From a virus: a stretch of DNA of 64,000 nt. The stretch lies in IMG/VR virus record IMGVR_UViG_3300044655_001360; one strand, given 5' to 3'. The translations under genes and the position numbers were made by a program. Below, in pieces: positions 21,172 through 45,383 of this stretch (positions are counted from its first letter, which is position 1; every line of letters begins with the position of its first letter). Below the pieces are notes generated by a model. The model ran no database searches. It worked only from the letters and a program-made list of their open reading frames with translations, and was not told where the DNA came from.

Positions 21172-21183
21172 GCTATATCCTTA

Positions 21184-23714: not shown

Positions 23715-23736
23715 GCTCGCACCTAGCGGTGCTCGC
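23715..23736 (-). repeat. Hairpin element, copy 2
   Basis: Minus strand GCGAG CACC GCTA GGTG CGAGC. Confidence 0.9.
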
Positions 23737-23791
23737 AAGGTACGAGCAATGCACAAGTGAGGTACGAGTGAGGTACGAGCAAGGTACTAGC
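23737..23791. repeat. Short iterated AGGTACGAG repeats
   Basis: AGGTACGAGC, AGGTACGAGT, AGGTACGAGC, AGGTACTAGC. Confidence 0.8.
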
Positions 23792-28405: not shown

Positions 28406-28897
28406 TTAAACCAACTTAAAAGCCTTAAGGTTTTTCCGAATAGTGCCTGGTCCAACATCTTTTGTTGAGTTTTGTTTGGTAACAATACCAACACCAGCTG
28501 CGTCTTCCATGTTAACCGAGTTCAAATACTCGCCATTACGAATATGCTCTTCTTGTTCAGCAGCGATGTGTCTTGCCAATTCTCTTATTAAAGAATCTGG
28601 GAATTTCTCATCTCGATCTTCAATATCAAAATGATCACAGTATTGGTCAATACTGGTTAATATAGGTTTGATGTAGATTTTATAGATATTTGCATTACCA
28701 ACATACTTGAGATGTTTCTTGGTAACTGGAAAGAAGTGGTTATTCAGTAACTTATCGTCATTATCGATATAGAACTTTAGGTCACCGAGCCAATCAATAT
28801 CCTGCGAATCATCTTCTGATGGGGCACCAATAGGAGAATACTCCTTAGCGTCTTCTGTTAATCGTTTGGTCGATGCGAATAATTCTAGTAATTGCAT
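28406..28897 (-). CDS. Hypothetical protein with head-protein-like leader
   Basis: MQLLELF...LTED; AAGGA RBS. Confidence 0.55.
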   Translation of the reverse strand: MQLLELFASTKRLTEDAKEYSPIGAPSEDDSQDIDWLGDLKFYIDNDDKLLNNHFFPVTKKHLKYVGNANIYKIYIKPILTSIDQYCDHFDIEDRDEKFPDSLIRELARHIAAEQEEHIRNGEYLNSVNMEDAAGVGIVTKQNSTKDVGPGTIRKNLKAFKLV

Positions 28898-28918
28898 TTG
28901 TATTCCTTTTTCTTGGTA

Positions 28919-29272
28919 CTAAATCTGATACCGGATTTGTACGATAGTACCTTGTTCTAGTTGATAAGCAGCCCTAATCCAAATGAATTTACCCCAGAAT
29001 GTATATGAGGAATTTGCACTGGATATATATGAACTATCACCACCTAATAAAGTTTCGGGCACGTCAAACCAATCCTGTTCACCCGGATATAACTCTAGGG
29101 TTGCTTGGATTTTAACTGTACCTTTAAACTGGTCAAATTGATAAACAACGAGATGACTTCCATCGTTATTATGTTGATAACCTGCACCTTTTTGCTTAGA
29201 AGTATAGGCAAATTCGGTAGGCATCGAATCATTTGAGTAGTTTGATATTAATATTTGACTTTCTTTTTGCAT
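28919..29272 (-). CDS. Hypothetical late (probably structural) protein
   Basis: Start taken at MQKESQ, just downstream of CTAAATA (29277..29283). Confidence 0.5.
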   Translation of the reverse strand: MQKESQILISNYSNDSMPTEFAYTSKQKGAGYQHNNDGSHLVVYQFDQFKGTVKIQATLELYPGEQDWFDVPETLLGGDSSYISSANSSYTFWGKFIWIRAAYQLEQGTIVQIRYQI

Positions 29273-29305
29273 ACCGTATTTAGCTTGAAAGTTCGGTATT
29301 TCTAG

Positions 29306-29327
29306 GCTCGCTCCTAGCGGAGCTCGC
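29306..29327 (-). repeat. Hairpin element, copy 3
   Basis: Minus strand GCGAG CTCC GCTA GGAG CGAGC. Confidence 0.9.
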
Positions 29328-29377
29328 ATATTATGCGTATATATTGATATATACAAGTTTAACTCTAATATTGGATA

Positions 29378-29399
29378 GCGAGTGCCGATAGGCACGAGC
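29378..29399 (+). repeat. Hairpin element, copy 4
   Basis: GCGAG TGCC GATA GGCA CGAGC. Confidence 0.9.
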
Positions 29400-29438
29400 C
29401 ATAAAAAAAGGGCAGTACCTGAGTACCACCCTTTGGGG

Positions 29439-30098
29439 TTAAGTTACGACATGTTCATAGATTCTACCGATAATGGCTTGGTTTCGCATCCTTAGCATCA
29501 AAAGAGTTTGCTCATCTTCTACTAGGATATATCTTGCATCACCAGACCATCTTGTATACATAATCCAATCTTGGATTGCTTCAGAGAATGTAATACGAGG
29601 TACTTGTGTATTCATCCACTTGATATATTCCTGCTTTTCAGCTGGATCAAGTATCTTATGTGGTTTCAAGAAAACCTTGAACCTATACTTACCATATGGT
29701 AATTTCTTAACAGAAATAACATTGGGTGTATCCAATATAGGATTTGTTAAGTCAGGTTCCCATCTTTCTAAGATTGGAAACTTAGCACTAATCGCATTAT
29801 ACATATTCACGTCATTTGTAAAGATAGAAATATCAAATTCCGTTCTAGCAGTCCAATCCGTTTTTGGATACATATCTACAAAATCAATCAATTCAATGAT
29901 TGCATCTTTATGGAGGTTCAACAAACGTTGTTGATGTTTGGAAAAACTCCAACAATAAGAACCGTTTTCGCAGAATTCTTTCATACGATTGCGGAACTTA
30001 TTGAAGTTTAACAACGCAGCACTGTATTGACTAACATCTATTGTGACTTTGTAAAGCCACTTGTCATAATACTTCTTAGTTGTCGTCTGCGTGATCAT
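29439..30098 (-). CDS. Hypothetical protein
   Basis: 219-aa ORF overlapping the clpA end. Confidence 0.6.
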   Translation of the reverse strand: MITQTTTKKYYDKWLYKVTIDVSQYSAALLNFNKFRNRMKEFCENGSYCWSFSKHQQRLLNLHKDAIIELIDFVDMYPKTDWTARTEFDISIFTNDVNMYNAISAKFPILERWEPDLTNPILDTPNVISVKKLPYGKYRFKVFLKPHKILDPAEKQEYIKWMNTQVPRITFSEAIQDWIMYTRWSGDARYILVEDEQTLLMLRMRNQAIIGRIYEHVVT

Positions 30099-32400
30099 CA
30101 GCTAATACCAATTGCCCATCTTCAACGATCAGTTTTTGATCTGATTCCACTACTGGTTTAACATACTCAGAAACTGTGAAAACGGGTTCGTCATTTTCGA
30201 TAGTAACTTTAACATGACCACCGTTAACCAAATCACCGAATAAAACACGACGACTTAATGGACTTTTCAGTTTAGTATCGATTACTCTTGAAAGAGGTCT
30301 AGCACCCATTTTCTTATCGTATCCAAGTTTAGCTAACCATTCAGCTGTAGTTTCATCGATTTCAATTAAGATATCTTTGTCTTTTAACTGGGCGTTTAAT
30401 TCACCAATGAATTTATCCACGATTTTAAGAACTGTACTATGTTCTAATGGAGCAAACTTGATGATAGCATCTAAACGATTGCGGAATTCAGGTGCAAAGT
30501 ATTCATTAATTGCTTTATCATCTTCACCAGTTCTAGCTAAATCACCAAACCCAATAGTATTACGTTCACTGTCACGAGCACCCAAGTTACTCGTCATAAT
30601 AAGAATACAGTTACGACCATCTGCTTGTTTGCCGTTAGAACCAGTTACAAAGCCATTATCCATGAATTGTAACATGATATTTGTTACATCAGGATGTGCT
30701 TTTTCGATTTCATCGAGTAGAAGAACACAGTGTGGATTTTCTTGCAGTTTAGTAATTAACTGACCTGCGTTGTCTTCAAATCCAACATAACCAGGAGGTG
30801 AACCAATCAATCTTGCCACTGAGTGTTTCTCTTGATATTCACTCATGTCAAAACGAACTAATGGCATGTGCATGTACTTAGCAAGTTGCATAGAAAAATT
30901 TGTTTTACCAACGCCGCTGGGTCCTGGGGCAAGAAAACATCCAATTGGTTTGTTAGGAGCTTTCATACCAGCTTGTGATAAGAAGATTTTATCAACCATT
31001 TTCTCAATAGCTTCGTCTTGTCCAAAGATAACCGATTTCAAATGAGGTTCTAATTCTTGCAAATCCGAACTTTCACGTTGATTCATTGATTCAAGTGGCA
31101 TACCTAGCATTTTAGACAATTCAAATGAAATCTGTTCGATGTCAACTATTTCAGTTACACCTTCAGTTGTCGGATCATCGTTCAATTTGAATCGAGCAGA
31201 AGCACAATCCAAGATATCAATTGCTTTATCTGGAAGTTGCTTGTCATTGATATACTTAACGGACAATTTAACTGCTTGTTCGATAGCTGCTGTAGTAATT
31301 TTCACATTATGATGTGCTTCATAATACTTACGAATACCTTTTAAGATTTTAACTGCCATTTCTGGTGATGGCTCATCCGCAGTAACTCGTTGGAAACGAC
31401 GCATTAATGCACGGTCATTTTCAAAGTGTTTGCGATAATCTTCCCATGTAGTAGAAGCAACAATTTTGATAGTACCTTTAGTTAATAAAGGTTTCAACAT
31501 ATTAGATAAATCATTAGCACTATTACTTGATGCACCAGCACCTTGCATCATATGAGCTTCATCAATGAATAATATAATTTTACCTTTTTTCACTAATGCT
31601 GCCAACACGCCTTTGATGCGTTCTTCAAAATCACCACGATACTTGGTACCAGCTAGTAACGAACTGATATCCAATGAATAAACTTCGTGGTCTTGAATGA
31701 ACTTAGGTACATCTTTCTCGTGAATTTTACGGGCTAGGCCAGCTATAATGGAAGTTTTTCCAACTCCTGGTGAACCGATTAAAAGTGCATTACACTTATG
31801 TCTACGAGCAAGAATCAATTGGATTTCTTCTAACTCGGTTTCACGACCGATAACTGGATCTATTTTGTTATCACGAGCAAGAGCACTCAAGTTAGTGCAA
31901 TACGCATCCAATAACTTATCTGGGTTTTTCGCACTACCAACTGCTTGATCACCCAAGTCACCATCTTCACGATTGGCATTGAAGTGTTTAGCAAACTTTT
32001 CTTTAGAAACACCACCACGATTAAAGAAGTAGTAAGCAAAACTGTTCTTTTCACTTAAGATACTAATGATAACATCAGTAACTTCAGTTGTATTACGACC
32101 ACTGAATACAACTTGAGTAAAGCAACGATGTAATACACGGTCAACCGAATTGGTTTTACGTGGTACGTGATTAGGATCATCGATTACGATTTCAGCCAAA
32201 TTGGTTTTCAAGTAGTGATCTAAGTTCATTTTAATAAACTTAGCATCTGCGCCAAAACCTTCGATTAAGTTATATGAATCTTGATCACTCATAATTGCAT
32301 ACGCAATATGTTCAAGAGTAATATACTCATGACTGTGTTCTTTTGCAATCTCAGTTGCTGCCTCAAAGATTGATTGTAAGTTTTTACTCGGTTCAATCAT
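30076..32400 (-). CDS. clpA: ATP-dependent Clp protease ATP-binding subunit ClpA
   Basis: Clp N-domain, two AAA+ modules (GSPGVGKT, GPSGVGKT, FIDEAH, LLLDEIEKAH), IGF ClpP-docking loop, no long M-domain. Confidence 0.93.
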   Translation of the reverse strand: MIEPSKNLQSIFEAATEIAKEHSHEYITLEHIAYAIMSDQDSYNLIEGFGADAKFIKMNLDHYLKTNLAEIVIDDPNHVPRKTNSVDRVLHRCFTQVVFSGRNTTEVTDVIISILSEKNSFAYYFFNRGGVSKEKFAKHFNANREDGDLGDQAVGSAKNPDKLLDAYCTNLSALARDNKIDPVIGRETELEEIQLILARRHKCNALLIGSPGVGKTSIIAGLARKIHEKDVPKFIQDHEVYSLDISSLLAGTKYRGDFEERIKGVLAALVKKGKIILFIDEAHMMQGAGASSNSANDLSNMLKPLLTKGTIKIVASTTWEDYRKHFENDRALMRRFQRVTADEPSPEMAVKILKGIRKYYEAHHNVKITTAAIEQAVKLSVKYINDKQLPDKAIDILDCASARFKLNDDPTTEGVTEIVDIEQISFELSKMLGMPLESMNQRESSDLQELEPHLKSVIFGQDEAIEKMVDKIFLSQAGMKAPNKPIGCFLAPGPSGVGKTNFSMQLAKYMHMPLVRFDMSEYQEKHSVARLIGSPPGYVGFEDNAGQLITKLQENPHCVLLLDEIEKAHPDVTNIMLQFMDNGFVTGSNGKQADGRNCILIMTSNLGARDSERNTIGFGDLARTGEDDKAINEYFAPEFRNRLDAIIKFAPLEHSTVLKIVDKFIGELNAQLKDKDILIEIDETTAEWLAKLGYDKKMGARPLSRVIDTKLKSPLSRRVLFGDLVNGGHVKVTIENDEPVFTVSEYVKPVVESDQKLIVEDGQLVLADDHADDN

Positions 32401-32431
32401 TCGTAACTCCTAGGTTGTTAATGTTATAGTT

Positions 32432-32526
32432 AGTTTAACTTGTTTTCTAGTACAAGTCAAGGTTTGTTTAAAAGTATTAATGTATGTAGCGAATATGTAG
32501 TATACTCTTGATTTTAGAATTGTCAA
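32432..32526 (-). promoter_or_regulatory. Two tandem sigma70-like promoters upstream of clpA
   Basis: TTGACT-N17-TAAACT (32432..32460) and TTGACA-N16-TATACT (32499..32526). Confidence 0.7.
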
Positions 32527-32536
32527 GTGTTTATTG

Positions 32537-32558
32537 GCTCGCTCCTAGCGGAGCTCGC
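32537..32558 (-). repeat. Hairpin element, copy 5
   Basis: Minus strand GCGAG CTCC GCTA GGAG CGAGC. Confidence 0.9.
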
Positions 32559-32569
32559 AAGATTATGGT

Positions 32570-32869
32570 TCAATTATCTTTTAGATCACGAATGGCTCTA
32601 ACACTGTTTATGTTTTCCTTGTATAGAGATGTTTGTATTCCGTTTTGGTTGAAACTTTTACACCAAACATAACTGATATTGTGTTCTGTGAACGACCAAT
32701 ATCGTTTCTTATCAAAATCATTATCTGATTCATATATTCTGTTTAATTCATCTTTAGTGGGTAATCGCCATCCAGTCTTACCATCTATATTAAGAGAAAA
32801 ACAATACAACTTGGCATCAAACCAGTTTAGTCTAATTTCAGTTGATTTAGGTGCTATTTCAAAGTTCAT
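32570..32869 (-). CDS. DUF1566/Lcl-like (C-type lectin fold) small protein, paralogue 1
   Basis: MNFEIAPKS...W.DA..YC..L.I.G..GWRLPT..EL...YWS...VRAIRDLKDN. Confidence 0.75.
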   Translation of the reverse strand: MNFEIAPKSTEIRLNWFDAKLYCFSLNIDGKTGWRLPTKDELNRIYESDNDFDKKRYWSFTEHNISYVWCKSFNQNGIQTSLYKENINSVRAIRDLKDN

Positions 32870-33059
32870 GATGATCATTATCCTCAACCGACCATTCAAT
32901 ATAGTCAATCAAATTTTGAATATCGCTACGTAGGACAGTTGCACGATATTGCCATTGGTTATTCTCGGTTACGAGTTTATCTTCGAGTGATTCAACAGTC
33001 GCTAAAAGATTATCGAGTTTTAACATTAAGATTTGTTTATGTGATAGGGATTTTCTCAT
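32859..33059 (-). CDS. Hypothetical protein
   Basis: 66 aa with a GGAGG RBS, downstream of the promoter. Confidence 0.6.
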   Translation of the reverse strand: MRKSLSHKQILMLKLDNLLATVESLEDKLVTENNQWQYRATVLRSDIQNLIDYIEWSVEDNDHHEL

Positions 33060-33084
33060 GATTGCCTCCGGTTAAGTTTTGCCT

Positions 33085-33112
33085 ATTATAACTAAAAGAT
33101 AATCGATGTCAA
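33085..33112 (-). promoter_or_regulatory. Sigma70-like promoter with the 12-mer box in its spacer
   Basis: TTGACA-tcgATTATCTTTTAGt-TATAAT. Confidence 0.8.
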
Positions 33113-33165
33113 CCATTATTTGCGAGCCCTAATAAAAGAATACCCAGACTAGCTGGGTATTGAAT

Positions 33166-33963
33166 TTAAGTAGCAACTGCTTGTATATGCAGTATTTGAT
33201 CTGGTGTTAAGTCTTTGGGTATCTTGATTTTAACTTTAATCAAAAGATTACCACGACGTTTAGTTTGCATATTGGGTAACCCTTCACCATTACAACTTAA
33301 AACAGTTTCGGGTTGGATACCAGCTGGGATTGTCAGGTTTAGCGTTCTGTCATCTAAGGTATGAATTTCAAGTTTAGTACCTAAAAGAGCATCCCAAACT
33401 GATATGGTTTTTTCAACTACTAGCGCATCACCTTCACGTCTAAACATTCGATGAGGTCTAATGTTAATATTAACAATCAAATCACCAGGAGGAATACCAG
33501 CAATCGAATCATCACCCAGACCTTGATAACGAATCTGCTGACCATGTAACACACCAGCAGGAACTTCAAGTTTAATCGTTTTCTTCTGACCAGATGGGTA
33601 AGCCAAGTCAGCATCAAATGATTTACCAGTTAGCACTTCTTCAAGTGAAACTTCTACATGGATAGAAAGACTGGTATTACGTTGTACGTGATGAAACCCA
33701 TGAGGACCACCGCCATGGAAAAATTCAAATGGATTAAATCCACCATGGAATTGCGGTTCAGGATTATTTGGATCTTGTCCATTATCAACCCGTTGTTTTT
33801 TAACTGGGTCACTTAAGACTTCATAAGCCGTTGCAATGTCTTTAAATTGTTCTTCAGAACCACCTCGGTCTGGGTGATGTTTCATTGCCAGTGAGCGATA
33901 GGCTTTCTTAATTTCATCTGCCGATGCGCCACGTGTTAAACCTAAAATCTTGTAGTAATCCAT
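33166..33963 (-). CDS. dnaJ: DnaJ/CbpA-type co-chaperone (J domain plus C-terminal domain, no Zn finger)
   Basis: DYYKILG...IKKAYR.LA..HHPD, G/F-rich linker, and DnaJ_C motifs (GDL, ALLG, G.GLP). Confidence 0.9.
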   Translation of the reverse strand: MDYYKILGLTRGASADEIKKAYRSLAMKHHPDRGGSEEQFKDIATAYEVLSDPVKKQRVDNGQDPNNPEPQFHGGFNPFEFFHGGGPHGFHHVQRNTSLSIHVEVSLEEVLTGKSFDADLAYPSGQKKTIKLEVPAGVLHGQQIRYQGLGDDSIAGIPPGDLIVNINIRPHRMFRREGDALVVEKTISVWDALLGTKLEIHTLDDRTLNLTIPAGIQPETVLSCNGEGLPNMQTKRRGNLLIKVKIKIPKDLTPDQILHIQAVAT

Positions 33964-33972
33964 ATTCCCAAA

Positions 33973-34587
33973 TTAAGGTAAATGTTTAAGGGCCAATGCG
34001 TAATTCGCATTGCGTTCTTCTAAACCATTAGTACCACCATTGATTTTCTTAGTAATGGTTAGCATATCTTTCTTGTCTGCATGGGTGTTAAGGTCGTGTT
34101 TATCCCAGAACCAGCAAGCAGATTCTAAAGCACCTTCCATGCTACACAGGTATTCACACAAATGATCTACTTCTACACCTAAGTCTTTAGCCATACTAAG
34201 GTAATTTGCTTTACCAGTCAATTGGATTAAACCACGACCACAAAACTTAAAGCCTTCACCAGTAGCTTCTGGACCATTCCCCATTCTACCACCATATACT
34301 TTATTTGCAATCTTTTCTGGTTGCTTTGCATATTGTTTGGCTACTGCTAAGGTAGGAAAGTACTTGGGGAATACTTTAACTAAGGTTTCAGCACGATAGT
34401 TCAAGTTTTCACGTAAGACAGTAAACTGACCACTTTCATGTGAACACTGGGCAATAAATGCAGCAACTCGTAACTTGGTATTGATTTCATACTTTGGTAA
34501 AATCTTATCTAATGCCGCTTTCCATTCATCAATGTGTTTGTTATTTGGTAATATAGCCGCCAAGTCAGCTTTTGTTATTTCATACAT
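33973..34587 (-). CDS. Glycoside hydrolase family 19 (chitinase-like) endolysin
   Basis: FIAQCSHESG, ENLNY, GRGLIQLTGKANY, SACWFW, INGG.NGL.ER. Confidence 0.9.
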   Translation of the reverse strand: MYEITKADLAAILPNNKHIDEWKAALDKILPKYEINTKLRVAAFIAQCSHESGQFTVLRENLNYRAETLVKVFPKYFPTLAVAKQYAKQPEKIANKVYGGRMGNGPEATGEGFKFCGRGLIQLTGKANYLSMAKDLGVEVDHLCEYLCSMEGALESACWFWDKHDLNTHADKKDMLTITKKINGGTNGLEERNANYALALKHLP

Positions 34588-35325
34588 TTAGTCAATCCTT
34601 TTTAATAGCATTGTGTTTGAATCGTTAGTAAACACAAAGTTCTCACCTATTTTGTTGATGTTATAATCACCTAGTACTTTAGTTAACCAAAAGATTTCAC
34701 TCATAGTGGCTTCATCCATTACATAACCTTCAGTACCTTCTAAAATGGCATTCTCTTGTACCAATCGAAGTTTGATTCGATTACCATAAGGTTTTACAAT
34801 AGTGATAACATCGTCTTCTAAGGTAAAATCATCCATTAAAGTCTTTGTAAAGAACTTACGAATGCTTTCAGTTCTGATATCACCTAACATAGCAACGTAG
34901 TCAGCTGGGCTAGACGGAACTATAGCAGTTAAAGTTTCTTCATTGGCTTCGTGTTCAGCTTCATTGGTATGAAACTTGAACTTAAAGTTTTTAATACCAG
35001 TCAACTTAGTAACACCATATAAGATTTCAGTGATATGATTGGCTAAATGAGATTCTCTTGGTAATTCAACGAATACATAGTAATCACCTGCATTCGATTC
35101 ACCAGCACTTACATCAGCATCCAACACATAATGGTATCCTTTTTCAATGAAATCCATTAAGTCCTTGGCAGGTGATCTATCTTTAAGTTGGAAACTCAAA
35201 ACACAAACGTCTTGATCTTCACCCATCTTAGACCGATACGTGTCAATCTCAAAGAATGGGTAAATCATATGTTCTAAATCTAAAGGTCTTAAACCTTCGG
35301 TCAAGTTAGAGTGGTGGAAGTTCAT
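34588..35325 (-). CDS. Conserved-type hypothetical late protein
   Basis: Start taken at MNFHHSNLTEGL; 'ID.Y.SKMG.D.DV.VLSF'. Confidence 0.55.
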   Translation of the reverse strand: MNFHHSNLTEGLRPLDLEHMIYPFFEIDTYRSKMGEDQDVCVLSFQLKDRSPAKDLMDFIEKGYHYVLDADVSAGESNAGDYYVFVELPRESHLANHITEILYGVTKLTGIKNFKFKFHTNEAEHEANEETLTAIVPSSPADYVAMLGDIRTESIRKFFTKTLMDDFTLEDDVITIVKPYGNRIKLRLVQENAILEGTEGYVMDEATMSEIFWLTKVLGDYNINKIGENFVFTNDSNTMLLKRID

Positions 35326-35839
35326 TCTCAGCCTCCATTGCTTGTGTTTCAGCTGGGTCAACATGCGCATTCACGCCCTGATTCATCGTAGCAATATCAT
35401 CTAACTTGTTTTTATCCAAATTAGTATAGCCACGTGTGATATCAGTCATGAGTTTCTTTGGCATGCCAATTTTAACTAGCCAAACTTCTTCGCGGTCAAT
35501 CTTACCTTTACGCGTGCCTGGTCTGATGTCATCAACTTTCTTAATCTTTCGAACTCTTGAAAAATGGGAACTAGCAAACTCAACTTTACACCCATACTCC
35601 ATTAGTCTTAATCCACCAATGGGTTCTGGCATTTGCTTTTTAGGCCACATAAAAGTACATTCAACAAAGTAACGACTTTCATTTGGTCCAACAACTAATT
35701 CACCATCAATCCAGTTATCATAGACATACGTGTCTAATTCATCTATAACCCGTTCGAAATCTTTTAGCAAAGCGAGACTGTTATTAGAACCATAAATCTG
35801 TTCAATATTCTGTATTACGTCTTTAATATCGGTTGCCAT
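35306..35839 (-). CDS. Conserved-type hypothetical late protein
   Basis: 177 aa with a GGAG RBS and CTAAATA at 35857..35863. Confidence 0.6.
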   Translation of the reverse strand: MATDIKDVIQNIEQIYGSNNSLALLKDFERVIDELDTYVYDNWIDGELVVGPNESRYFVECTFMWPKKQMPEPIGGLRLMEYGCKVEFASSHFSRVRKIKKVDDIRPGTRKGKIDREEVWLVKIGMPKKLMTDITRGYTNLDKNKLDDIATMNQGVNAHVDPAETQAMEAENELPPL

Positions 35840-35941
35840 AAATTCTCCTATTGACGTATTTAGGCGAATTTCATTTGGGTAGAAAAGAAAAAGGCTACCT
35901 GAGTAGCCTTTGTTTGTATGGATTATTGATCACACCTGATC

Positions 35942-36208
35942 TCATACGCGTTTAATCTCTAACTGGTTGACAATACCAGATAGGTTAAATAAAGCGATGA
36001 ACTTATCAAAATCAATTTGATTGCTGAATTTGATACTGGTTATATCATCATAGACGCTAGTTCGTAGTTTTGCATTGAAAGCCAACTTACAATACTCCTT
36101 ATATCCGTCTGTTCTTGACCAGCCTTGTGCTTTGGCTGCAGATCTGATTACATTAATGAATTGATCAGAAGTTACATCGTTATATTTGAATTTAATTGTA
36201 ATAGTCAT
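35942..36208 (-). CDS. Hypothetical early protein
   Basis: 88 aa with a GGAG RBS and promoter TTGACA-N16-TATACT at 36240..36267. Confidence 0.6.
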   Translation of the reverse strand: MTITIKFKYNDVTSDQFINVIRSAAKAQGWSRTDGYKEYCKLAFNAKLRTSVYDDITSIKFSNQIDFDKFIALFNLSGIVNQLEIKRV

Positions 36209-36274
36209 GTTGTTTACTCCAGTTAGTTAAGGTGTGAGTAGTATAATATATTATTTGGGAATGTCAAGTGTTTT

Positions 36275-36574
36275 TCAATTATCTTTTATATCTCTCACGG
36301 CGCGTACCCGAATATTATCACTTGATTTACCATGAGCGTATCGACTACCATCTCTAAATGATAAAGCATCAGCAAGTATATTAGTAATCTCAACAGATGT
36401 CCAGTAGTATGAACTTGCGAAATCATTTCCTGATTTGTATATTTCGTTTAATTCTTCATTGGTTGGTAGCCTCCATCCGGATTTACCGCCTATATCAAGG
36501 GAGAAACAATACAAACGGGCATCATCCCAGTTGGATCGGATCTCTGTTGATTTTGGTGCTATTTCAAATTTCAT
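36275..36574 (-). CDS. DUF1566/Lcl-like protein, paralogue 2
   Basis: Family motifs present; promoter TTGACT-N16-TATACT at 36608..36635. Confidence 0.75.
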   Translation of the reverse strand: MKFEIAPKSTEIRSNWDDARLYCFSLDIGGKSGWRLPTNEELNEIYKSGNDFASSYYWTSVEITNILADALSFRDGSRYAHGKSSDNIRVRAVRDIKDN

Positions 36575-36726
36575 GTTATTAACTCCGGTTCTGTTTAAGA
36601 TGCTGGTAGTATAACAACGAAACTAATAAAGTCAATACCTAAAACAAAGAAACCTCAAATAGAAATATTTGAGGTTTTCTAAGAGGTGTGATTTCTCAAA
36701 AGTATTATTTGATTATATTACTGATA

Positions 36727-36747
36727 GCTCGCGCTATTCGCGCTCGC
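36727..36747 (-). repeat. Hairpin element, copy 6 (21-nt variant)
   Basis: Minus strand GCGAG CGC GAATA GCG CGAGC. Confidence 0.8.
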
Positions 36748-36809
36748 ACAAATAGAAATGAAATAGATAATTGAACCCACCAGATTTTGGACGTAACTGT
36801 CCATTTAAA

Positions 36810-37260
36810 AGAATAATACTAAAAGATAATTGAACTATGATTGTCTTATAGATGATGTCGATTACTAAAAGATGATTGAACTATTATAGACTTATAGATG
36901 ATGTTTATATTTGATCTATTATCTTTTAGTTATGATATTCTTATTGATGATCTTATTGATGATCTTATTGATGTGAGTTATTAATGAATTATCTTTTAGT
37001 TCAAAATGTATATGTTCGAATAGATCTAAAATGTATGTGTGCAAATGGAAACAGCTAAAATGTATGGGTTCGTATAGAGTTAAAATGTATGTGCGCGAAT
37101 GGAAACAGCTATAAGGCAATTATCTTTTAGGTTCAAAATGTATGTGCGCGTGGCTTAAGCAGGTAGGATATAAGGGAAGATAAAGTTGAATCTATTATCT
37201 TTTAGATGCTCCTACAATAATAGATTAATTATAGATTAATTATAGATTCTAATAGAAGCT
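36810..37260. repeat. AT-rich iterated-repeat region, candidate replication origin
   Basis: Two ~40-bp direct repeats starting CTAAAAGAT, three short TCTTATTGATG repeats, AAAATGTAT x5 within longer duplicated units, ATAGATTAATT x2, and six 12-mer boxes. Confidence 0.6.
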
Positions 37261-37269
37261 CCTAATACT

Positions 37270-37900
37270 GCGGTATGTGGAGCTGAACATCTTAACCCGA
37301 AAAACTCGGGTTAATTCAAAGCATTCTGGAGGATACATTCTCAAGAAGTTCTGCGTACAAGTATCGCATCACAGCAGCAGTAGAGCATTACAGAGGCGGT
37401 CAGCCGGTACCTCGAGCTCAGTCTTATTAATCTGACGGTGGCTTGCTGGACAACTGCTACCTCATCCAACAAACGCGGGTTTTCTCAACCCATCTTTAGC
37501 CTTTGTTATATCTTTTTGCTGTAACTCAAATGGGTTGTATGAAGGCATATCCCATAACTCATCTGGTGGGGTAGTGAGTTACATCTCCGTTGCTAAATTC
37601 GGAACTTCCATCCCCTATGTGACAAGTAGACTAGGGTTTAAGGGCACGTAATGGTCGCCTGTGCGCGGCTTTCTTAGCAATTCTCTCGTCTTTCTATGTT
37701 CTATCTAGTAATTCGACGAGCAATGGTGGCGGGTGCCTAAAAGATAATTGAAGTAGTATTGAGATGGTCTCTGAAGTTGTAAAAGCGAATAGACTAGGTG
37801 TCGGTAGGGATTTGAGTTGGTCTCTAAAAGATCATTGAGTAATAGACTGGGTGTCGGTAAGCATTTGAGATGGTCTCGGTAAACTGCTTTTGAGTAGAAT
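37270..37900 (-). ncRNA. Candidate large structured non-coding RNA
   Basis: ORF-free, GC-elevated core with many helices whose G.U pairs favour the minus strand. Consensus promoter directly upstream. Ends are uncertain. Confidence 0.6.
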
Positions 37901-37907
37901 ATGATTA

Positions 37908-38019
37908 ATTATAACTTAGATTATGGGGACTGTCAACCTTTTTTCAAGGCTTCTCGTTAACTTCTTTTGGGTAATTTCATAATATGGTTAATTGTACCTT
38001 GTATAGAAATGGATGTCAA
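37908..38019 (-). promoter_or_regulatory. Two sigma70-like promoters pointing into the non-coding interval
   Basis: TTGACA-N17-TATAAT (37908..37936) and TTGACA-N17-TACAAT (37991..38019). Confidence 0.8.
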
Positions 38020-38025
38020 GTGTTT

Positions 38026-38316
38026 TTAATCATCTTTTAGATCTCGAACTGGCATAGTAACTGCTTCGCTTTCGTTTTTGTCCCATTCTATGAAGTGCAT
38101 TCCGTGTGGGCGCACTTGCATTGCATCCAATCCAAGGTCCTCGGAAGTCCAGTACCAATGATTGACAGCTGATGTGACTTGATTTGCGTGAAAATAATCT
38201 ATATCAGGTAAATGCCAACCGGTTTTACCATCGATATTAAGACAAAAACAATAAAACTTGGCTTCATACCAATTCAAATCGGATTTCCAATATTCTTCAG
38301 GTGCTATCTCAATCAT
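38026..38316 (-). CDS. DUF1566/Lcl-like protein, paralogue 3
   Basis: Family motifs; ends PVRDLKDD. Confidence 0.7.
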   Translation of the reverse strand: MIEIAPEEYWKSDLNWYEAKFYCFCLNIDGKTGWHLPDIDYFHANQVTSAVNHWYWTSEDLGLDAMQVRPHGMHFIEWDKNESEAVTMPVRDLKDD

Positions 38317-38576
38317 CTTTTAATTCTCGAGAAAAATCTAGGGTGAATAAGACAAAGTATTCTATTAAATATAGTTGGTTCAATATCTCTAACTGGTACT
38401 AGATGAAATTCGCAAGGACTATGTTGTAAATCATCATTTTGGTACCACATAACATGTTCAATGGCTTTGTATTCGTCAAGAGTTGGCAGTCTCCAACCAT
38501 CACCTAAACAAAAACAATACAAAACAGCATCTACATACGACATTCGGTTTTCTGGTGGTTTTCCTACTTCAATCAT
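38313..38576 (-). CDS. DUF1566/Lcl-like protein, paralogue 4 (short form)
   Basis: DA.LYCFCL..GWRLPT..E...PVRD. Confidence 0.65.
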   Translation of the reverse strand: MIEVGKPPENRMSYVDAVLYCFCLGDGWRLPTLDEYKAIEHVMWYQNDDLQHSPCEFHLVPVRDIEPTIFNRILCLIHPRFFSRIKR

Positions 38577-38832
38577 CGGTTATATCTCGCACTGGTATGG
38601 TATTCGAAACTTCATTTGTATTACTTTCACCCTCGCTATCCCAAAAAAGATAGCATGAACTTCTCAGTTGATTAAATTGCTCCCACAGAGTCACACCAAT
38701 TAAGGCATGTTCTGCGCTAGTCGGTAATCTCCAACCAGTCTTACCATTAATCGTAAGAGAGAAGCAATACATCTTAGCTTCATCGAATGTTAAATCTTTC
38801 CAGTATTTCTCGTTTGCAAACTCAAAGTTCAT
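38569..38832 (-). CDS. DUF1566/Lcl-like protein, paralogue 5
   Basis: Start MNFEFANE; YCFSLTINGKTGWRLPT...PVRD. Confidence 0.7.
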   Translation of the reverse strand: MNFEFANEKYWKDLTFDEAKMYCFSLTINGKTGWRLPTSAEHALIGVTLWEQFNQLRSSCYLFWDSEGESNTNEVSNTIPVRDITDD

Positions 38833-39047
38833 GTTATATCTCGCACTGGGGTTACTGGTAATGGTTCTGGACATTGCTCGTTTAAGTACCAACCTCGTAT
38901 GTTATAATGGTATTGAAATTCTTTGTCAGTCGGCATTCTCCATCCAATCTTACCATCGATGTTCAATGCAAAGCAATATAGCAATGCCTCGTCGTATGTT
39001 AACCAATTTTCCGATGTAGGTGCTATTTCAATTTTTGATTTCATCAT
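38829..39047 (-). CDS. DUF1566/Lcl-like protein, paralogue 6 (short form)
   Basis: IEIAP...YCFALNIDGKIGWRMPT...PVRD. Confidence 0.7.
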   Translation of the reverse strand: MMKSKIEIAPTSENWLTYDEALLYCFALNIDGKIGWRMPTDKEFQYHYNIRGWYLNEQCPEPLPVTPVRDIT

Positions 39048-39340
39048 CTTTTAGATCTCACGGCTCTAACCTTATTTTTACTTTCACGATGGGCATGAAA
39101 CTGGTGGTGAATTCCTCGATACGCGAAGCCTTTTTGAACCCAAATGCTTACATCACCCCATTCTTCGCTAGTCCAATAATAATCATTACCATTGAGAAAA
39201 TCAACCATTATATTCAACTCTTTCTTGGTTGGCAACCGCCATCCTGTTTTACCATCTATACGAAGAGCAAAACAATACAACCTGGCATCATTCCAGTTGG
39301 CTAGTATCTCGGTTTCTTTAGGTGCTATTTCGAATTTCAT
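39044..39340 (-). CDS. DUF1566/Lcl-like protein, paralogue 7
   Basis: Family motifs; ends VRAVRSKR. Confidence 0.75.
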   Translation of the reverse strand: MKFEIAPKETEILANWNDARLYCFALRIDGKTGWRLPTKKELNIMVDFLNGNDYYWTSEEWGDVSIWVQKGFAYRGIHHQFHAHRESKNKVRAVRSKR

Positions 39341-39627
39341 AGTAAATCCCTAACTAACCTAGTTCTAATCTTATCATCAAGTTTATTTGCCTTGTGAAAA
39401 CTGTTTGACAAGAAACTTTTAACCCAGGCGCGTGTGGTATCAATCTCGGTCGAAGACCAATACCAACCATCGAAATCGTTATCGGATTTCCAAATTTCAC
39501 TAAATTCGTTTTTAGAAGGTAATCTCCATCCGATCTTACCATCGATATTAAGAGAAAAGCAATACAATCGGGCATTATCCCAGTTGGTTCGGATCTCAGT
39601 AGATTTTGGTGCTATTTCAAAGTTCAT
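39337..39627 (-). CDS. DUF1566/Lcl-like protein, paralogue 8
   Basis: Start MNFEIAPKS; YWSS...AWV..F...RLVRD. Confidence 0.75.
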   Translation of the reverse strand: MNFEIAPKSTEIRTNWDNARLYCFSLNIDGKIGWRLPSKNEFSEIWKSDNDFDGWYWSSTEIDTTRAWVKSFLSNSFHKANKLDDKIRTRLVRDLL

Positions 39628-39890
39628 AAGATTTCCAAACATTCTACAATTACGTTTTCAGAATCATCGCCTCTAAAGCGATTGCAAGAACGGGCATAAG
39701 ACTCAGCATCTATACGATTGCCATATACCTTGTGGATTTCATTACCAAACTCATTGCAACAAACCCAAACAACATCTAGTTTTTCAGAACGACTCTCTAT
39801 TTCACCCCATTCGGAATCGCCTGCGTTACGATGCGCAGTTAACCCAGTGGAATCTTTGCGTATATAAACAGTATGTTGGTGGTATTTCAT
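39624..39890 (-). CDS. Hypothetical early protein
   Basis: Start taken at MKYHQ with an AGGA RBS, downstream of the promoter. Confidence 0.55.
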   Translation of the reverse strand: MKYHQHTVYIRKDSTGLTAHRNAGDSEWGEIESRSEKLDVVWVCCNEFGNEIHKVYGNRIDAESYARSCNRFRGDDSENVIVECLEIL

Positions 39891-39918
39891 GTTGGTTCCT
39901 ATTAGTTGAGTTTTGCGT

Positions 39919-39946
39919 ATTATAACTAAAAGATAACTGATGTCAA
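39919..39946 (-). promoter_or_regulatory. Sigma70-like promoter with the 12-mer box in its spacer, driving the six-gene DUF1566 array
   Basis: TTGACA-tcaGTTATCTTTTAGt-TATAAT. Confidence 0.8.
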
Positions 39947-39993
39947 GCATATATTACTGTATTGTATTGCATTGTATTCTCGCGAGTAATGTC

Positions 39994-40015
39994 GCGAGCA
40001 CCGATAGGTGCGAGC
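39994..40015 (+). repeat. Hairpin element, copy 7
   Basis: GCGAG CACC GATA GGTG CGAGC. Confidence 0.9.
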
Positions 40016-40118
40016 CATAACCATTATGACAACTCAAATACTACCAAAATGGCAAACTAAATACAAGCAGTGCAGTACTTAACGCAGTTCAAACTTCAAC
40101 CAAAAAGGACTTCAAAGC

Positions 40119-41678
40119 ATGACGAGAAAAAGATCAAGACACACGGATTCACGCGAGTATTTCAACGAAACGCATGAACCAAATACCCCACCCCAAAGCA
40201 AAAAAGCCCGTAGTAAAAACTCCAGTAGTAAACACCAGCAGTCCCATCAACAAAACCACCAGCAACAACCAGACCCACAGCAAATGTCAATCGATCAACG
40301 ATTGGCTGCTAAACGTAAACGGGTTCAAATTCACCCCAAAAACCTTAGCCAAGAACAATACTTAATGGAACTTAACAATCCTAAAAAACAAATTGTTTTT
40401 GCTATCGGGCCAGCTGGTACTGGTAAAGCTCAACCACTGTTTTCAAAAATAAAAATTCCAGGCGGTTGGACTACTATGGGTGATATCGCAGTAGGTGATA
40501 AAGTCACTACTCCTGATGGTAATACCGCTAATGTCGTCGGCTTATTCCCACAAGGTAGTAAACCGACTTATTCAATCACCTTGCACGATGGTCGTTCTAC
40601 TCTAGCCTGCGCTGAACACCTATGGGAAGTATTCCTTGATAATAAACCTGCAGTCATCAATACACTAGAACTACTTAAACTGCGTTATCATGGCTCTATT
40701 ATGCCTTATATTCGCCTACCTAAACACGAAATCATGGACGATGTAGAACTACCAATCGACCCTTTCCAATTAGGTACTATGCTCTTAAAAGACGATAAAG
40801 CTATCCCAGCGGAATATCTCAACGCTTCTCGTTCACAAAAAGTTAAATTACTACAAGGTCTGCTCGATACCAGTATTCATGCTGTCGATTCTGGTAACCT
40901 AGTCTTTACTGCCGGTGCCTTGTTACAAAACTCTGTTGTCTACCTTGTGCGTTCTATCGGTGGTTCTGCTTGTATCAAAGACACTGGTGTTCATATTCGG
41001 TTTAGTATCGTTGAGAGTCCTTTAGAGTTAATGCCGGTGTTGTCAGTTGTCGAATCCGAGGTGGAAGAGTGTCAGTGTATCTTGATCGATAGTGAGGAAC
41101 ACTTGTATGTTACTGATAATTATATAGTTTCCCACAACACGCTAATCGCAACTCAGTGGGCCGTTGATCAATTTAAAGCTGGTAAATGTGATAAGATTAT
41201 TGTAACTAGACCTGCAGTTTCAAACTCAGAATCTCTCGGTTACCTTCCTGGTAATTTGGAAGAAAAAATGCTACCGTGGACTGTTGGTATGTTTGACGTT
41301 TTTTACGAAAACTGGACTAAGGCAGAAGTCGAGTGGTTGATGTCCCGTGACTGTATATCCATTTCCCCGATGTCGTATATGCGCGGACGTACAATGAAAA
41401 ATGCTTGTGTTATTGCAGACGAGGTGCAGTTATGTAACCCAAGCCAAATGAAAATGCTTCTTACTCGAATAGGTGATCAGTCAAAAATGATTTTGACAGG
41501 TGATCTCGCACAAGCAGATAGAGGAGAATTTAACGGGTTAAAAGATTTTATGGGTTTATATGACAAGGCGTCTGTGAATAAGGAAGAATCCCGAATTGCT
41601 ATTGTTAGGTTTAGCCATTCAGATATCGAGCGGCACCCGGCAGTTGCCGAGGTGCTGAAATATTACGGTGAAGATTAG
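40119..41678 (+). CDS. phoH: PhoH-family ATPase containing an intein
   Basis: GPAGTGK|intein|T, TRPAV, LGYLPG..EEK..P, YMRGRT, DE.Q, LLTRIG, TGDLAQ.D, DI.RHP. Confidence 0.93.
   Translation: MTRKRSRHTDSREYFNETHEPNTPPQSKKARSKNSSSKHQQSHQQNHQQQPDPQQMSIDQRLAAKRKRVQIHPKNLSQEQYLMELNNPKKQIVFAIGPAGTGKAQPLFSKIKIPGGWTTMGDIAVGDKVTTPDGNTANVVGLFPQGSKPTYSITLHDGRSTLACAEHLWEVFLDNKPAVINTLELLKLRYHGSIMPYIRLPKHEIMDDVELPIDPFQLGTMLLKDDKAIPAEYLNASRSQKVKLLQGLLDTSIHAVDSGNLVFTAGALLQNSVVYLVRSIGGSACIKDTGVHIRFSIVESPLELMPVLSVVESEVEECQCILIDSEEHLYVTDNYIVSHNTLIATQWAVDQFKAGKCDKIIVTRPAVSNSESLGYLPGNLEEKMLPWTVGMFDVFYENWTKAEVEWLMSRDCISISPMSYMRGRTMKNACVIADEVQLCNPSQMKMLLTRIGDQSKMILTGDLAQADRGEFNGLKDFMGLYDKASVNKEESRIAIVRFSHSDIERHPAVAEVLKYYGED
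40428..41138 (+). mobile_element. Class-3-type intein (237 aa) in the PhoH P-loop, with degenerate LAGLIDADG remnants
   Basis: Starts AQPL; block B HLW, block F CQCI, block G YVT...SHN; +1 Thr. Confidence 0.88.
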
Positions 41679-41689
41679 TTAGTAATAAG

Positions 41690-41712
41690 AAAAGGGCCTT
41701 ACGGCCCTTTTT
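41690..41712 (+). terminator. Rho-independent terminator after phoH
   Basis: AAAAGGGCC-TTAC-GGCCCTTTTT. Confidence 0.8.
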
Positions 41713-41721
41713 GTTTATATG

Positions 41722-41743
41722 GCTCGCACCTATCGGTGCTCGC
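41722..41743 (-). repeat. Hairpin element, copy 8
   Basis: Minus strand GCGAG CACC GATA GGTG CGAGC. Confidence 0.9.
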
Positions 41744-41829
41744 ATGATAAAAAGTATAAATACAAATGAGATTCGCGACTGTAGGAAGTCCAATCCCTCT
41801 AACATTTAATCTTAAAGGAGAATGCCAGC

Positions 41830-43134
41830 ATGAGTATTTATGCACCAGTCAAAAACCCAATTTCATTGGGTACACAATCAAACACTGTACAACCACAACC
41901 AACAACTTTACCCGAAGATAATCAAATCCCAGGGTATGTATATCGACTTACCTGTATACCTACTGGACAGTTTTATATAGGATCTCGTGTTGGGAATATC
42001 ACCGAAAAGAAAATGCCGAAAGAAGACTTTTGGATTAATTATCATACCAGTAGTGAATATGTCACTGAGTTAAGAATACTGTATGGGAAAGCTAGTTTCG
42101 AGTATGAAATCATTTACGAGGATTGTGATAGAGATAAAGTATTTTGGTATGAACAGGAACAAATCCAAAAACATTATAATGACCCATTGATTTTGAATAA
42201 ACAGGTTAATGGATATAAAGATAAACATAAAGGTAAATCTATACCAATATCCACATCAGGAAAACATAGAAAATGGGAAGTTACAGCACCGTGTGGTGTT
42301 GTGTGGGTAGTGAGTAACCTTGAACGATATTGCAAAAATAACGACTTAGATCCAGAAACGATGCGTGGTTTAGCGAGAGGAAAAGGTAAGCAATACAAAG
42401 GCTTTAAGTGCAGACTACAACCCAAATTACCAGTTCCAGCTTGGTATGTTACTATTGACATGGGTGACATTATAAAACCAATCGAACCTATTATGATATT
42501 AGGTAAAGTTCCGGTCATCGATATCAATATCAATCTAGTAGTACCGGAATTGCATGTGATTAAGTTTAAGCATAAGGAAAAGACTGAATCGTTGAGATCA
42601 CAGTATAAGAAATTAACTGCTGCTAAACCAGCAAAGAAACCAAAACCAGTGATACCATACAGCCCATCTGTTGCTAAAGGCTTGGCTAAAAAGAAAGCCA
42701 ATGGAACTCTTAGCTCGGCAGCTATAAAAGGTCAGGCAACACAGAGAAAGAATGGAACACATCAAAATGGTAACAAGGCTACCGTGTTAGCAACTAGAAA
42801 AGTGTGGGAGATTACTGATCCAGCTGGTAATATTACTATTACCAATGATTTGACTGGTTTTTGTAAAGAAAACGGCTTATCAGTTGCTTGTATGCGAGAT
42901 GTTGCATTTAATAGGCAGTTACAACATCGTGGTGGGTGGAAATGTAAAGAATGCGTTGGTGCTAAACCAGCAATTCATTGGGAGATTACGGACCCATTTG
43001 GTAATATAATTACAACTGATAATATAAAACAATTCTGCGAGGATAATAGTTTGAGTGAACCAGGTATGCGAAAAGTTGCACTTGGTTCCGCAAAATCACA
43101 TCGAGGCGGCTGGAAGTGTAAACGATTAGACTAA
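41830..43134 (+). CDS. Free-standing GIY-YIG-type homing endonuclease with three NUMOD-like repeat modules
   Basis: GYVY...FYIGSR and Y.TSS; three 'W.[IV]T.P.G......NL..[FY]C..N.L....MR..A.....GWKC'-like repeats. TATAAATA at 41755. Confidence 0.7.
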   Translation: MSIYAPVKNPISLGTQSNTVQPQPTTLPEDNQIPGYVYRLTCIPTGQFYIGSRVGNITEKKMPKEDFWINYHTSSEYVTELRILYGKASFEYEIIYEDCDRDKVFWYEQEQIQKHYNDPLILNKQVNGYKDKHKGKSIPISTSGKHRKWEVTAPCGVVWVVSNLERYCKNNDLDPETMRGLARGKGKQYKGFKCRLQPKLPVPAWYVTIDMGDIIKPIEPIMILGKVPVIDININLVVPELHVIKFKHKEKTESLRSQYKKLTAAKPAKKPKPVIPYSPSVAKGLAKKKANGTLSSAAIKGQATQRKNGTHQNGNKATVLATRKVWEITDPAGNITITNDLTGFCKENGLSVACMRDVAFNRQLQHRGGWKCKECVGAKPAIHWEITDPFGNIITTDNIKQFCEDNSLSEPGMRKVALGSAKSHRGGWKCKRLD

Positions 43135-43177
43135 AAGATAATGGGGCTCACGCGAGTGGGCCCTTTCTTTATAACAA

Positions 43178-43199
43178 GCTCGCACCTAGCGGTGCTCGC
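43178..43199 (-). repeat. Hairpin element, copy 9
   Basis: Minus strand GCGAG CACC GCTA GGTG CGAGC. Confidence 0.9.
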
Positions 43200-43215: not shown

Positions 43216-43503
43216 CTAAGCAGAAACAAACCCATGTTCACGTAGCAACATAAGGTCTACGAACTCCCAGCTGATAACCCGATAGAACATAGTCATAGCT
43301 TCACTATGATCGTCGTAGTCTCTTTCCATACCAGTATCATCTTCACCCCAAACGCAAACACGCCATTGGCCATCCCCATTTGTTGGATCTGGACCAGTCT
43401 GTGTAAAGGAAACACAAACAAGTTGCAGGTTATCCCAACCTTTTACTTGGTATGAAGGGTACCAATCATCGTGGGTTGGTTTGTATACGTCAATTCTTTT
43501 CAT
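43216..43503 (-). CDS. Hypothetical protein
   Basis: 95 aa with an AAGGA RBS. Confidence 0.6.
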   Translation of the reverse strand: MKRIDVYKPTHDDWYPSYQVKGWDNLQLVCVSFTQTGPDPTNGDGQWRVCVWGEDDTGMERDYDDHSEAMTMFYRVISWEFVDLMLLREHGFVSA

Positions 43504-43529
43504 AGTGGATTCCTTGTTTTAATTATCTT

Positions 43530-44554: not shown

Positions 44555-44576
44555 GCTCGCACCTAGCGGTGCTCGC
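44555..44576 (-). repeat. Hairpin element, copy 10
   Basis: Minus strand GCGAG CACC GCTA GGTG CGAGC. Confidence 0.9.
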
Positions 44577-45355: not shown

Positions 45356-45383
45356 ATTATACCTAAAAGATAATGGATGTCAA
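45356..45383 (-). promoter_or_regulatory. Sigma70-like promoter with the 12-mer box in its spacer
   Basis: TTGACA-tccATTATCTTTTAGg-TATAAT. Confidence 0.8.

Follow-up and report, generated by a model that had tools for sequence, protein, structure and literature searches.

The closest described counterparts of the element analysed here are the promoter-early stem-loops, or PeSLs, of T4-type phages (Arbiol et al. 2010, PMC2839356; Comeau et al. 2014, PMC4122927). PeSLs are composite cassettes formed by a stop codon, an AT-rich stretch, a stem-loop, a sigma70 promoter and a Shine-Dalgarno (SD) sequence, and they are concentrated in hyperplastic regions, where ORFans are inserted, deleted or replaced through recombination between them; the crossovers fall within the stem-loop or next to it, and the resulting motifs are chimeric (PMC2839356, PMC4122927). 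Their stem-loops have heterogeneous polyG/polyC stems and have been shown to terminate transcription (PMC2839356, PMC4122927). Hairpins of another class, with C(UUCG)G tetraloops, occur in the mRNA of phage T4 (PMC4371310). The family of 22-nt hairpins described below is best read as a PeSL-like intergenic stem-loop module that doubles as a recombination linker of short homology and disappears through deletion, and not as an autonomous mobile element.

The window, by which we mean the whole stretch of 64,000 nt from one IMG/VR record (IMGVR_UViG_3300044655_001360), comes from a giant T4-like phage of lake water that belongs to an uncultured lineage. A Pfam/PHROGs scan returns T4 hallmarks (a gp43-type polymerase, Phage_DsbA and a gp44-type clamp loader), besides genes for a dCMP deaminase, PhoH, a ClpB-like protein and a DnaJ-like protein; the family-B DNA polymerase has thousands of matches among T4-type records and is about 49% identical to its counterparts in jumbo phages of the PA5oct group. 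Many lake metagenomes contain DNA of the window, with sequencing runs that include about 20-100% of the words sampled from its 38-46 kb part, and the lineage of this phage is abundant in lakes. A nucleotide search of 50,697 phage records with the 31-39 kb part of the window gave zero matches, and a tRNA scan returned zero tRNAs. The polymerase gene is apparently split (19182-23370, minus strand) into a main ORF of 728 aa (21184-23370), an ORF of 339 aa carrying a DNA_pol_B segment (19182-20201) and an ORF of 334 aa between them (20167-21171). The PhoH-like protein (519 aa; 40119-41678, plus strand) matches along residues of about 53-234 PHROGs that are annotated as terminase, DnaC-like loader and primase, which suggests that a common inserted domain, perhaps an intein or nuclease-like, precedes the PhoH ATPase.

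The original prediction dealt with junctions behind DUF1566 genes, in which a hairpin near 32521 seemed to have been inserted between two halves that adjoin each other elsewhere in the window. All the strings it quoted were confirmed in place, but genes around 32521 run on the minus strand, and the strings have to be read in reverse complement. In that orientation AATTATCTTTTA is the 12-mer TAAAAGATAATT, which mostly represents the last codons of DUF1566/Lcl_C lectin paralogues (AAA GAT AAT TGA, that is KDN-stop), while TGTCAAGTGTTT is AAACAC-TTGACA and supplies the -35 box of an early promoter of the sigma70 type, which continues with N16-17 and then TATACT or TACAAT. The general layout is thus a gene end, an optional insert, and an early promoter or ribosome binding site (RBS). 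The features of the compared junctions are the following.

32570-32908, minus strand: DUF1566/Lcl_C paralogue, the last codons of which (AAA GAT AAT TGA) form the 12-mer at 32572-32583
32559-32569, minus strand: 11-nt spacer ACCATAATCTT, from stop codon to hairpin
32537-32558, minus strand: hairpin, GCGAGCTCCGCTAGGAGCGAGC on the minus strand (covariance model 44.1 bits, E 7e-13)
32499-32526, minus strand: sigma70-type early promoter TTGACA-N16-TATACT, 11/12 match; the TGTCAA in the original prediction is its -35 box
32432-32460: second promoter-like site, TTGACT-N17-TAAACT, upstream of the ClpB-like gene at 30076-32400 (direct reading)
36240-36288, minus strand: empty junction, with the 12-mer (36277-36288), AAAAACAC and TTGACA-N16-TATACT
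37991-38039, minus strand: empty junction, with a 12-mer variant (38028-38039), AAACAC and TTGACA-N17-TACAAT
43504-43532, minus strand: empty junction, in which the stop codon TAA opens the 12-mer (43521-43532), followed by the RBS and ATG of the gene at 43216-43503
44555-44576, minus strand: hairpin preceded by the 12-mer (44585-44596) and followed by the RBS of the next gene

On the minus strand the junction near 36262 reads TAAAAGATAATTGA-AA-AAACACTTGACA and that near 38014 reads TAAAAGATGATTAA-AAACACTTGACA, whereas the junction near 32521 has 37 additional nucleotides between TGA and AAACAC (alignment A2), where about 36 had been predicted; these consist of ACCATAATCTT, the 22-nt hairpin and CAAT. 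In the same way, the 12-mer abuts AAACAAGGAA..ATG near 43510 and is separated from the RBS near 44555 by GAATCAAC, the hairpin and TATT (alignment A3), exactly as had been described. These filled and empty junctions of the window are paralogous, not orthologous, and the similarity between 43510 and 44555 on the RBS side is nothing more than the generic SD consensus; this last point is what could favour the view that there is no real indel and that the flanks resemble each other merely as AT-rich promoters and gene ends. Against it, the 12 nt of TGTCAAGTGTTT occur exactly three times in the window, always at the junctions near 32521, 36262 and 38014, and the 12-mer has 34 matches with one mismatch at most, compared to 1.35 expected (a 25-fold enrichment). 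Since relatives also provide orthologous pairs of filled and empty sites, as documented below, this view is largely refuted and we consider it most improbable. Hence the flanks are similar beyond chance, as the original prediction required, while their homology is that of paralogous junctions and does not extend to the RBS side of the second pair. The orthologs of the 37991-38039 junction in the related contigs G004 and G005 are empty too. For the 43504-43532 junction, the ortholog in G003 is equally empty, and that in G001 carries a 20-nt insert holding the palindrome CTCGCGAG, possibly another scar of the hairpin.

The 12-mer has additional features of its own. It clusters on both strands of non-coding DNA at 36820-37204, 37738-37836 and 47839-47928, beside tandem repeats of CTTATTGATGAT (three copies) and AAAATGTATGTG (five copies), and together with a following GA it provides stop codons in all three frames. 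Perfect sigma70 promoters are present in the window, and three out of four with the form TTGACA-N16-TATAAT have the reversed 12-mer, ATTATCTTTTAG, as their spacer (33085-33112, 39919-39946 and 45356-45383, all on the minus strand); the remaining copies are not followed by a consistent -10 box, and the reversed 12-mer was therefore not taken for a general promoter element. In related contigs, TTGACA is often found immediately next to the forward 12-mer. The reversed 12-mer could be the operator for a phage regulator of early promoters. The gene-free stretch 36600-38000 also includes a match to the Polynucleobacter-1 RNA of Rfam (37519-37669, minus strand; 68 bits, E 2e-12), around which about 1.4 kb are conserved at approximately 80% in G004-G007, L009 and L011; a metatranscriptome contig spans 37473-37751.

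The hairpin itself is a real, structure-constrained element. Its consensus of 22 nt is GCGAG-N4-GNTA-N4'-CGAGC, composed of G1C2G3A4G5, one side of a 4-bp upper stem, a G-N-T-A loop, the complementary four nucleotides and C18G19A20G21C22, usually followed by another C. The window contains ten canonical copies, a 21-nt variant recognised by the covariance model and one deletion scar, all of them intergenic; the consensus pattern has nine matches compared to zero expected, and the covariance model retrieves eleven. They are confined to 19-46 kb, where the genes are small, while the structural blocks have none. The copies of the window not listed above, with the gene lying between two of them, are as follows.

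19155-19176, plus strand: hairpin copy with one G.T pair
23715-23736, minus strand: hairpin copy that precedes a gene start by 22 nt
29306-29399: two hairpins in inverted orientation, one at 29306-29327 (minus) and one at 29378-29399 (plus), separated by an AT-rich spacer of 50 nt and directly following the terminator at 29434-29407
33122-33128, plus strand: scar GCGAGCC; a perfect promoter (33112-33085, minus strand; 12/12 match) lies 9 nt downstream of it
36727-36747, minus strand: 21-nt variant with a 3-bp upper stem and a 5-nt loop (covariance model 21 bits)
39994-40015, plus strand: hairpin located where the DUF1566 array and PhoH diverge
41722-41743, minus strand: hairpin right after the PhoH terminator, at the left boundary of the GIY-YIG cassette
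41830-43134, plus strand: free-standing GIY-YIG (SegE-like) homing endonuclease gene, flanked by the hairpins at 41722 and 43178
43178-43199, minus strand: hairpin at the right boundary of the endonuclease cassette, adjoined by a bidirectional terminator (43143-43164)
45481-45502, plus strand: hairpin 4 nt past the stop codon of the gene at 45507-45836, antisense to transcription

The copy at 19155 lies 5 nt past the downstream fragment of the polymerase, and about four short direct repeats of GGTACGAG (23737-23790) lie directly beside the copy at 23715. The copy at 45481 is conserved in G001, G002, G003 and L022. A promoter accompanies the hairpin at 32537 and the scar at 33122, but none is present at 44555, 23715 and other copies, where the RBS follows directly. 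Inverted pairs of hairpins around AT-rich spacers of 25-70 nt recur in the family.

The element was found in 28 IMG/VR stretches. The window and 21 related sequences contain 82 copies with 22 distinct cores and nine forms of the upper stem, every one of which is fully complementary. Among 39 distinct copies, pairing is maintained in 99.3% of the cells and double-sided changes affect 46 cells, compared to 9.6 in shuffles; three of the stem pairs display all four Watson-Crick types. Alignment A1 and model R1 include three contigs (L002, L006 and L010) in which the motif lies inside other repeats of apparently unrelated phages. The stem comprises seven Watson-Crick pairs and two G.A pairs, closing a loop that reads GCTA, GTTA, GATA or GTAA; hardly any variation is seen in the stem base, tandem G.A/A.G mismatch included (read as T.C/C.T on the opposite strand), or at positions 1, 3 and 4 of the loop. 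Folding energies are -13 kcal/mol for the RNA of the GCGAG strand, -10 to -11 kcal/mol for that of the other strand, and about -6 kcal/mol for the DNA. An invariant stem base and GNTA loop, combined with a free upper stem, are more than a hairpin serving mere stability requires, and argue against such a role. Both these and the C(UUCG)G hairpins are short, recurrent tetraloop hairpins of T4-type phages, yet those in T4 mRNAs belong to a different loop class defined by loop stability, form no conserved 22-nt element with mismatches and have no described role in recombination (PMC4371310).

Other forms of the hairpin were observed. A perfect palindrome related to it (GGCTCGCG..CGCGAGCC) is found in L043 (1276-1300) and in the region of G004 around 13457; it merges both arm orientations without G.A mismatches in a stem of 8 bp (-11.7 kcal/mol as DNA), and a similarly 'corrected' copy lies at position 3715 of G001. 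In L002, a GC-richer viral contig that is apparently unrelated, a repeat of about 250 nt occurs three times (3247, 6559 and 7807), and in every copy a TCGA/TCGA stem lengthens the same hairpin core and a terminator-like hairpin comes next; these repeats may constitute a family of small RNA genes.

Several identities could be discarded. The terminator scan calls none of the hairpins, which have no T-run or U-tract after the stem-loop and are in several cases adjoined by separate canonical terminators; the hairpin thus does not qualify as a rho-independent terminator, and termination is not an obvious job for it. The RNA contig of one relative extends about 28 nt beyond the hairpin at 45481, although contigs cannot show where transcripts end. 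A scan of 185,579 species genomes retrieved only 21 scattered singletons, mostly in GC-rich MAGs and at chance level, and an origin from REP elements or MITEs of the host was rejected on this ground. A permissive Rfam search around 29250-29450 gave chance-level matches alone, to the neighbouring terminator. The hairpin was also rejected as a transcript start depending on a TATAAT-like -10 box just upstream, because the spacing is variable (0-7 nt), a -35 box is lacking and half of the copies are antisense. The variant TGCC-GATA-GGCA bears a passing resemblance to a type I-F CRISPR repeat, but arrays and repeat handles are absent.

Among co-directional gene pairs, 19 hairpins are sense and 19 antisense, a pooled figure that counts L002, L006 and L010. 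This equality argues against a strand-specific RNA signal and towards recognition at the DNA level. A subset departs from it: All seven independent hairpins lying 4-14 nt behind the stop codon of a DUF1566 gene are in the sense orientation, which brings diversity-generating retroelements (DGRs) into consideration. The DGR target hairpin, or cruciform, sits downstream of the variable region (VR) of target genes with the lectin fold (Guo et al. 2011, PMC3240598), at a distance of 4-34 bp, with a GC-rich stem of 7-10 bp and a 4-nt loop of sequence 5'-GRNA (PMC3240598). DUF1566/CLec is a family of DGR target genes, and the hairpin described here would likewise act on DNA, has a GC-rich stem of about 9 bp in which pairing is kept despite variation, and has a conserved 4-nt loop of the form G...A (cf. 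PMC3240598). Yet most copies lie away from DUF1566 or other target-type genes and half are antisense, so that a sense position behind a variable region is not what defines them; just two of the six array-terminal DUF1566 genes of the window carry the hairpin, gene ends are AT-rich without a GC-rich IMH, and the loop is mostly GCTA or GTTA rather than GRNA, with a purine at position 2 in a minority. Moreover, ten hairpin-bearing contigs, all fragments except G010 (98% complete), contain no RVT_1 match, and neither a cognate reverse transcriptase nor a template repeat is in view. That the hairpin is, or descends from, a DGR target-recognition hairpin is consequently a reading to which we give little credit.

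If the hairpin were gained and lost as a unit, as the original prediction proposed, filled and empty alleles should be found by aligning orthologous regions of close relatives. At the sites on which the proposal was based this is not the case: The hairpin at 32537 is present in L016 and that at 44555 in six of six relatives (G001, G002, G003, L022, L086 and L087, with G002 sharing the left flank alone), and every available ortholog searched for an empty allele of either was filled. Scans of viral contigs for the 12-mer followed by AAACACTTGACA found unrelated phages and one junction of the type of G006, in which a canonical terminator between two 12-mers takes the place of the hairpin; one metagenome scan for the flanks of 44555 produced two contigs, both filled. 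Alignments extending for at least 40 nt on each side span 63 hairpins, nearly all of which are conserved in the partner, and reveal presence/absence at three other orthologous sites.

At the first of these sites, the hairpin of L020 (2931-2952) corresponds to an exact 22-nt gap in G006 and G008 (CCTATTG|AAGAT), without duplication and in an alignment of 88% identity. The spacer ACCATAATCTT precedes the hairpin in L020 as well as the empty site in G006 and G008. Here G008 has one more DUF1566 gene, and L020 combines the left part of one junction of G008, the hairpin and the right part of the next junction. At the second site, L016 has the full hairpin (7178-7199) and the window, within a block of 96% identity, has a 15-nt gap that leaves GCGAGCC at 33122. 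The third site opposes L020, which keeps only GCGA, to G006 and G008 (6999); its junction is of the type originally noted, with a terminator, the 12-mer, the hairpin and the AAACAC-TTGACA promoter. The second and third sites thus represent losses of the hairpin by deletions that left scars. Loss is therefore supported by two scarred deletions, beside one exact indel that may be either a loss or a gain, while no gain could be documented among the polymorphic sites.

These results speak against the part of the original prediction that considered the hairpin to be mobile. No precise insertion with a target-site duplication or a fixed target motif was found, and no transposase-like gene is present among the few window proteins scanned with Pfam/PHROGs, which cover a minority of the small ORFs in these 64 kb of a much larger genome, the sole nuclease found being the GIY-YIG homing endonuclease. 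A self-mobile element of the MITE, REP/RAYT or IS200/IS605 type is accordingly not supported, given the lack of target duplication and of a partner enzyme in view, the low turnover and the fact that only losses are seen.

The other part of the same prediction, that the hairpin marks recombination junctions, is supported, since mosaic boundaries between related phages coincide with it. Related lake contigs align with the window as a mosaic of blocks of 77-96% identity, and their homology ends 0-2 nt from the hairpins at 32537, 41722 and 43178. For example, L016 matches 28512-32560 and 32694-35916, the first block stopping 2 nt past the hairpin at 32537-32558, where L016 goes on with about seven different DUF1566 genes in a row; in three other lake metagenomes, contigs likewise lose their match at 32560 and continue with unlike sequence. 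At the 32537 junction, a left flank of the L020 type adjoins a hairpin of the L016 type, whose stem is different, so that only about 8 nt of common sequence are left for a crossover. Two directly oriented hairpins enclose the endonuclease gene and those following it in the window and in G001. G002, which lacks all these genes, matches the window up to 41743, the final base of the hairpin at 41722, and again from 44957; it possesses a single chimeric hairpin, with the left flank of 44555 joined to the loop and right flank of 41722. In X4 contigs, homology ends at the hairpin at 41722, and one of these contigs joins position 41744 to sequence resembling that at 32566. Identical hairpins can share one flank and differ in the other, on either side. 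Read joints with less than 30 nt on one side, such as that from 29402 to 43179, reflect shared hairpins and nothing more.

When all pairs are considered, 123 of 262 breakpoint clusters are intergenic, though intergenic DNA amounts to 13.7% of the sequence, and 13 of these 123 lie within 5 nt of a hairpin compared to 3.6% expected (binomial P=5e-4, the events not being independent); the pooled figures include L002, L006 and L010, on which the junction cases described above do not depend. Breaks are found also at other short repeats, namely 12-mers and terminators, and this fits general recombination. Thus the gene at 44583-44894 is an insertion between two 28-nt repeats containing the 12-mer (44612 and 44957) that is absent from six relatives, and L016 has a cassette of 810 nt between two copies of the terminator at 35890-35911 (repeat 35885-35916).

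In mechanistic terms, we consider it probable that the hairpin is the stem-loop block of a PeSL-like system of modular junctions, operating in the small-gene, or hyperplastic, part of the genome of a giant T4-like freshwater phage. The junctions would be assembled from a gene end with the 12-mer, the hairpin, a canonical terminator, a sigma70-type early promoter and an RBS, the hairpin being optional. In the transcript or in unwound DNA the hairpin may fold as cistron punctuation, either as an attenuator or as a stem-loop protecting 3' ends like that of T4-type PeSLs. Because many copies share 22 identical bases, the general recombination or replication machinery of the phage could cross over or switch template at them, joining different flanks so that cassettes would be added, removed or replaced. 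The filled and empty appearance of paralogous junctions would then result from module exchange and occasional deletion of the palindrome, and not from transposition of the hairpin.

The resemblance to PeSLs is considerable. The phage is T4-like and the motifs are composite intergenic cassettes among small and ORFan genes of hyperplastic regions; ORFan cassettes between two motifs correspond to a single chimeric motif at the empty site of a relative, with crossovers in or next to the stem-loop. The junction near 32521 even reproduces the order of a PeSL subclass, from stop codon and AT-rich stretch to a stem-loop upstream of the -35 box, promoter and SD. The differences are that the hairpin here forms a single 22-nt family, defined by an invariant base, G.A mismatches in tandem and a loop of GNTA, that either orientation is used, and that the copies often have no promoter and often have a separate canonical terminator beside them. 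The PeSL model leaves unexplained the invariant mismatched base, the invariant loop and the equal use of both orientations. Moreover, the exact 22-nt indel between L020 and G006/G008 needs two events under a simple crossover between hairpins, and the mere 8 nt or so in common at the hairpin edge of some junctions, such as that at 32537, do not fit this model well either.

This evidence creates a puzzle: Is the hairpin a passive stretch of homology, or is it recognised as DNA? It might be a DNA-level site, a cruciform or single-strand hairpin whose stem base would be cut by a dedicated phage nuclease or recombinase driving cassette exchange, a possibility that we hold to be unlikely though worth considering. 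An asymmetric stem base and a loop that stay invariant while the upper stem covaries, an orientation unbiased with respect to transcription, several breaks falling precisely on one edge, 5' or 3', of the 22-mer, one indel of exactly 22 nt without flanking repeat, and an endonuclease gene of the GIY-YIG type between two copies would all be consistent with it. But the hairpins have no candidate enzyme associated with them and show no target-site duplication, breaks occur equally at 12-mers and terminators, and turnover is low, with about three polymorphic orthologous sites per 63 spanned hairpins; breaks at the edge are, besides, equally expected from crossover inside identical 22-mers. The attC sites of integrons, as well as REP elements with their RAYT transposases, are imperfect hairpins that are recognised as folded single-stranded DNA. 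Our hairpin resembles them in its imperfect stem, its conserved unpaired bases and its position between genes or at the bounds of gene cassettes, but it is much shorter than attC sites, its family occurs in no bacterial genome, and no integrase or RAYT was found among the few window proteins scanned. A more specific proposal makes the 22-nt element the site at which a dedicated cassette-exchange system of giant T4-like phages would recombine, with a phage nuclease or recombinase reading the G.A base and GNTA loop and cutting the stem base; it appears somewhat less likely still. Were it true, genes for lectins, homing endonucleases and ORFans would move as hairpin-bounded cassettes of a viral integron-like system whose origin may lie in a DGR target hairpin.

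Returning to the preferred PeSL-like reading, what is known is the modular shuffling, and what is new is a sharply defined 22-nt family in an uncultured lineage of giant T4-like phages. Giant phages carry large arrays of small accessory genes, the shuffling of which is poorly understood outside the T4/RB49 and KVP40 pairs treated in the PeSL literature. With its natural filled, empty, scarred and chimeric alleles, the 22-nt hairpin constitutes a marker for following cassette exchange in metagenomes, and can be used to test whether the linkers between such genes are passive short homologies or sites for active enzymes.
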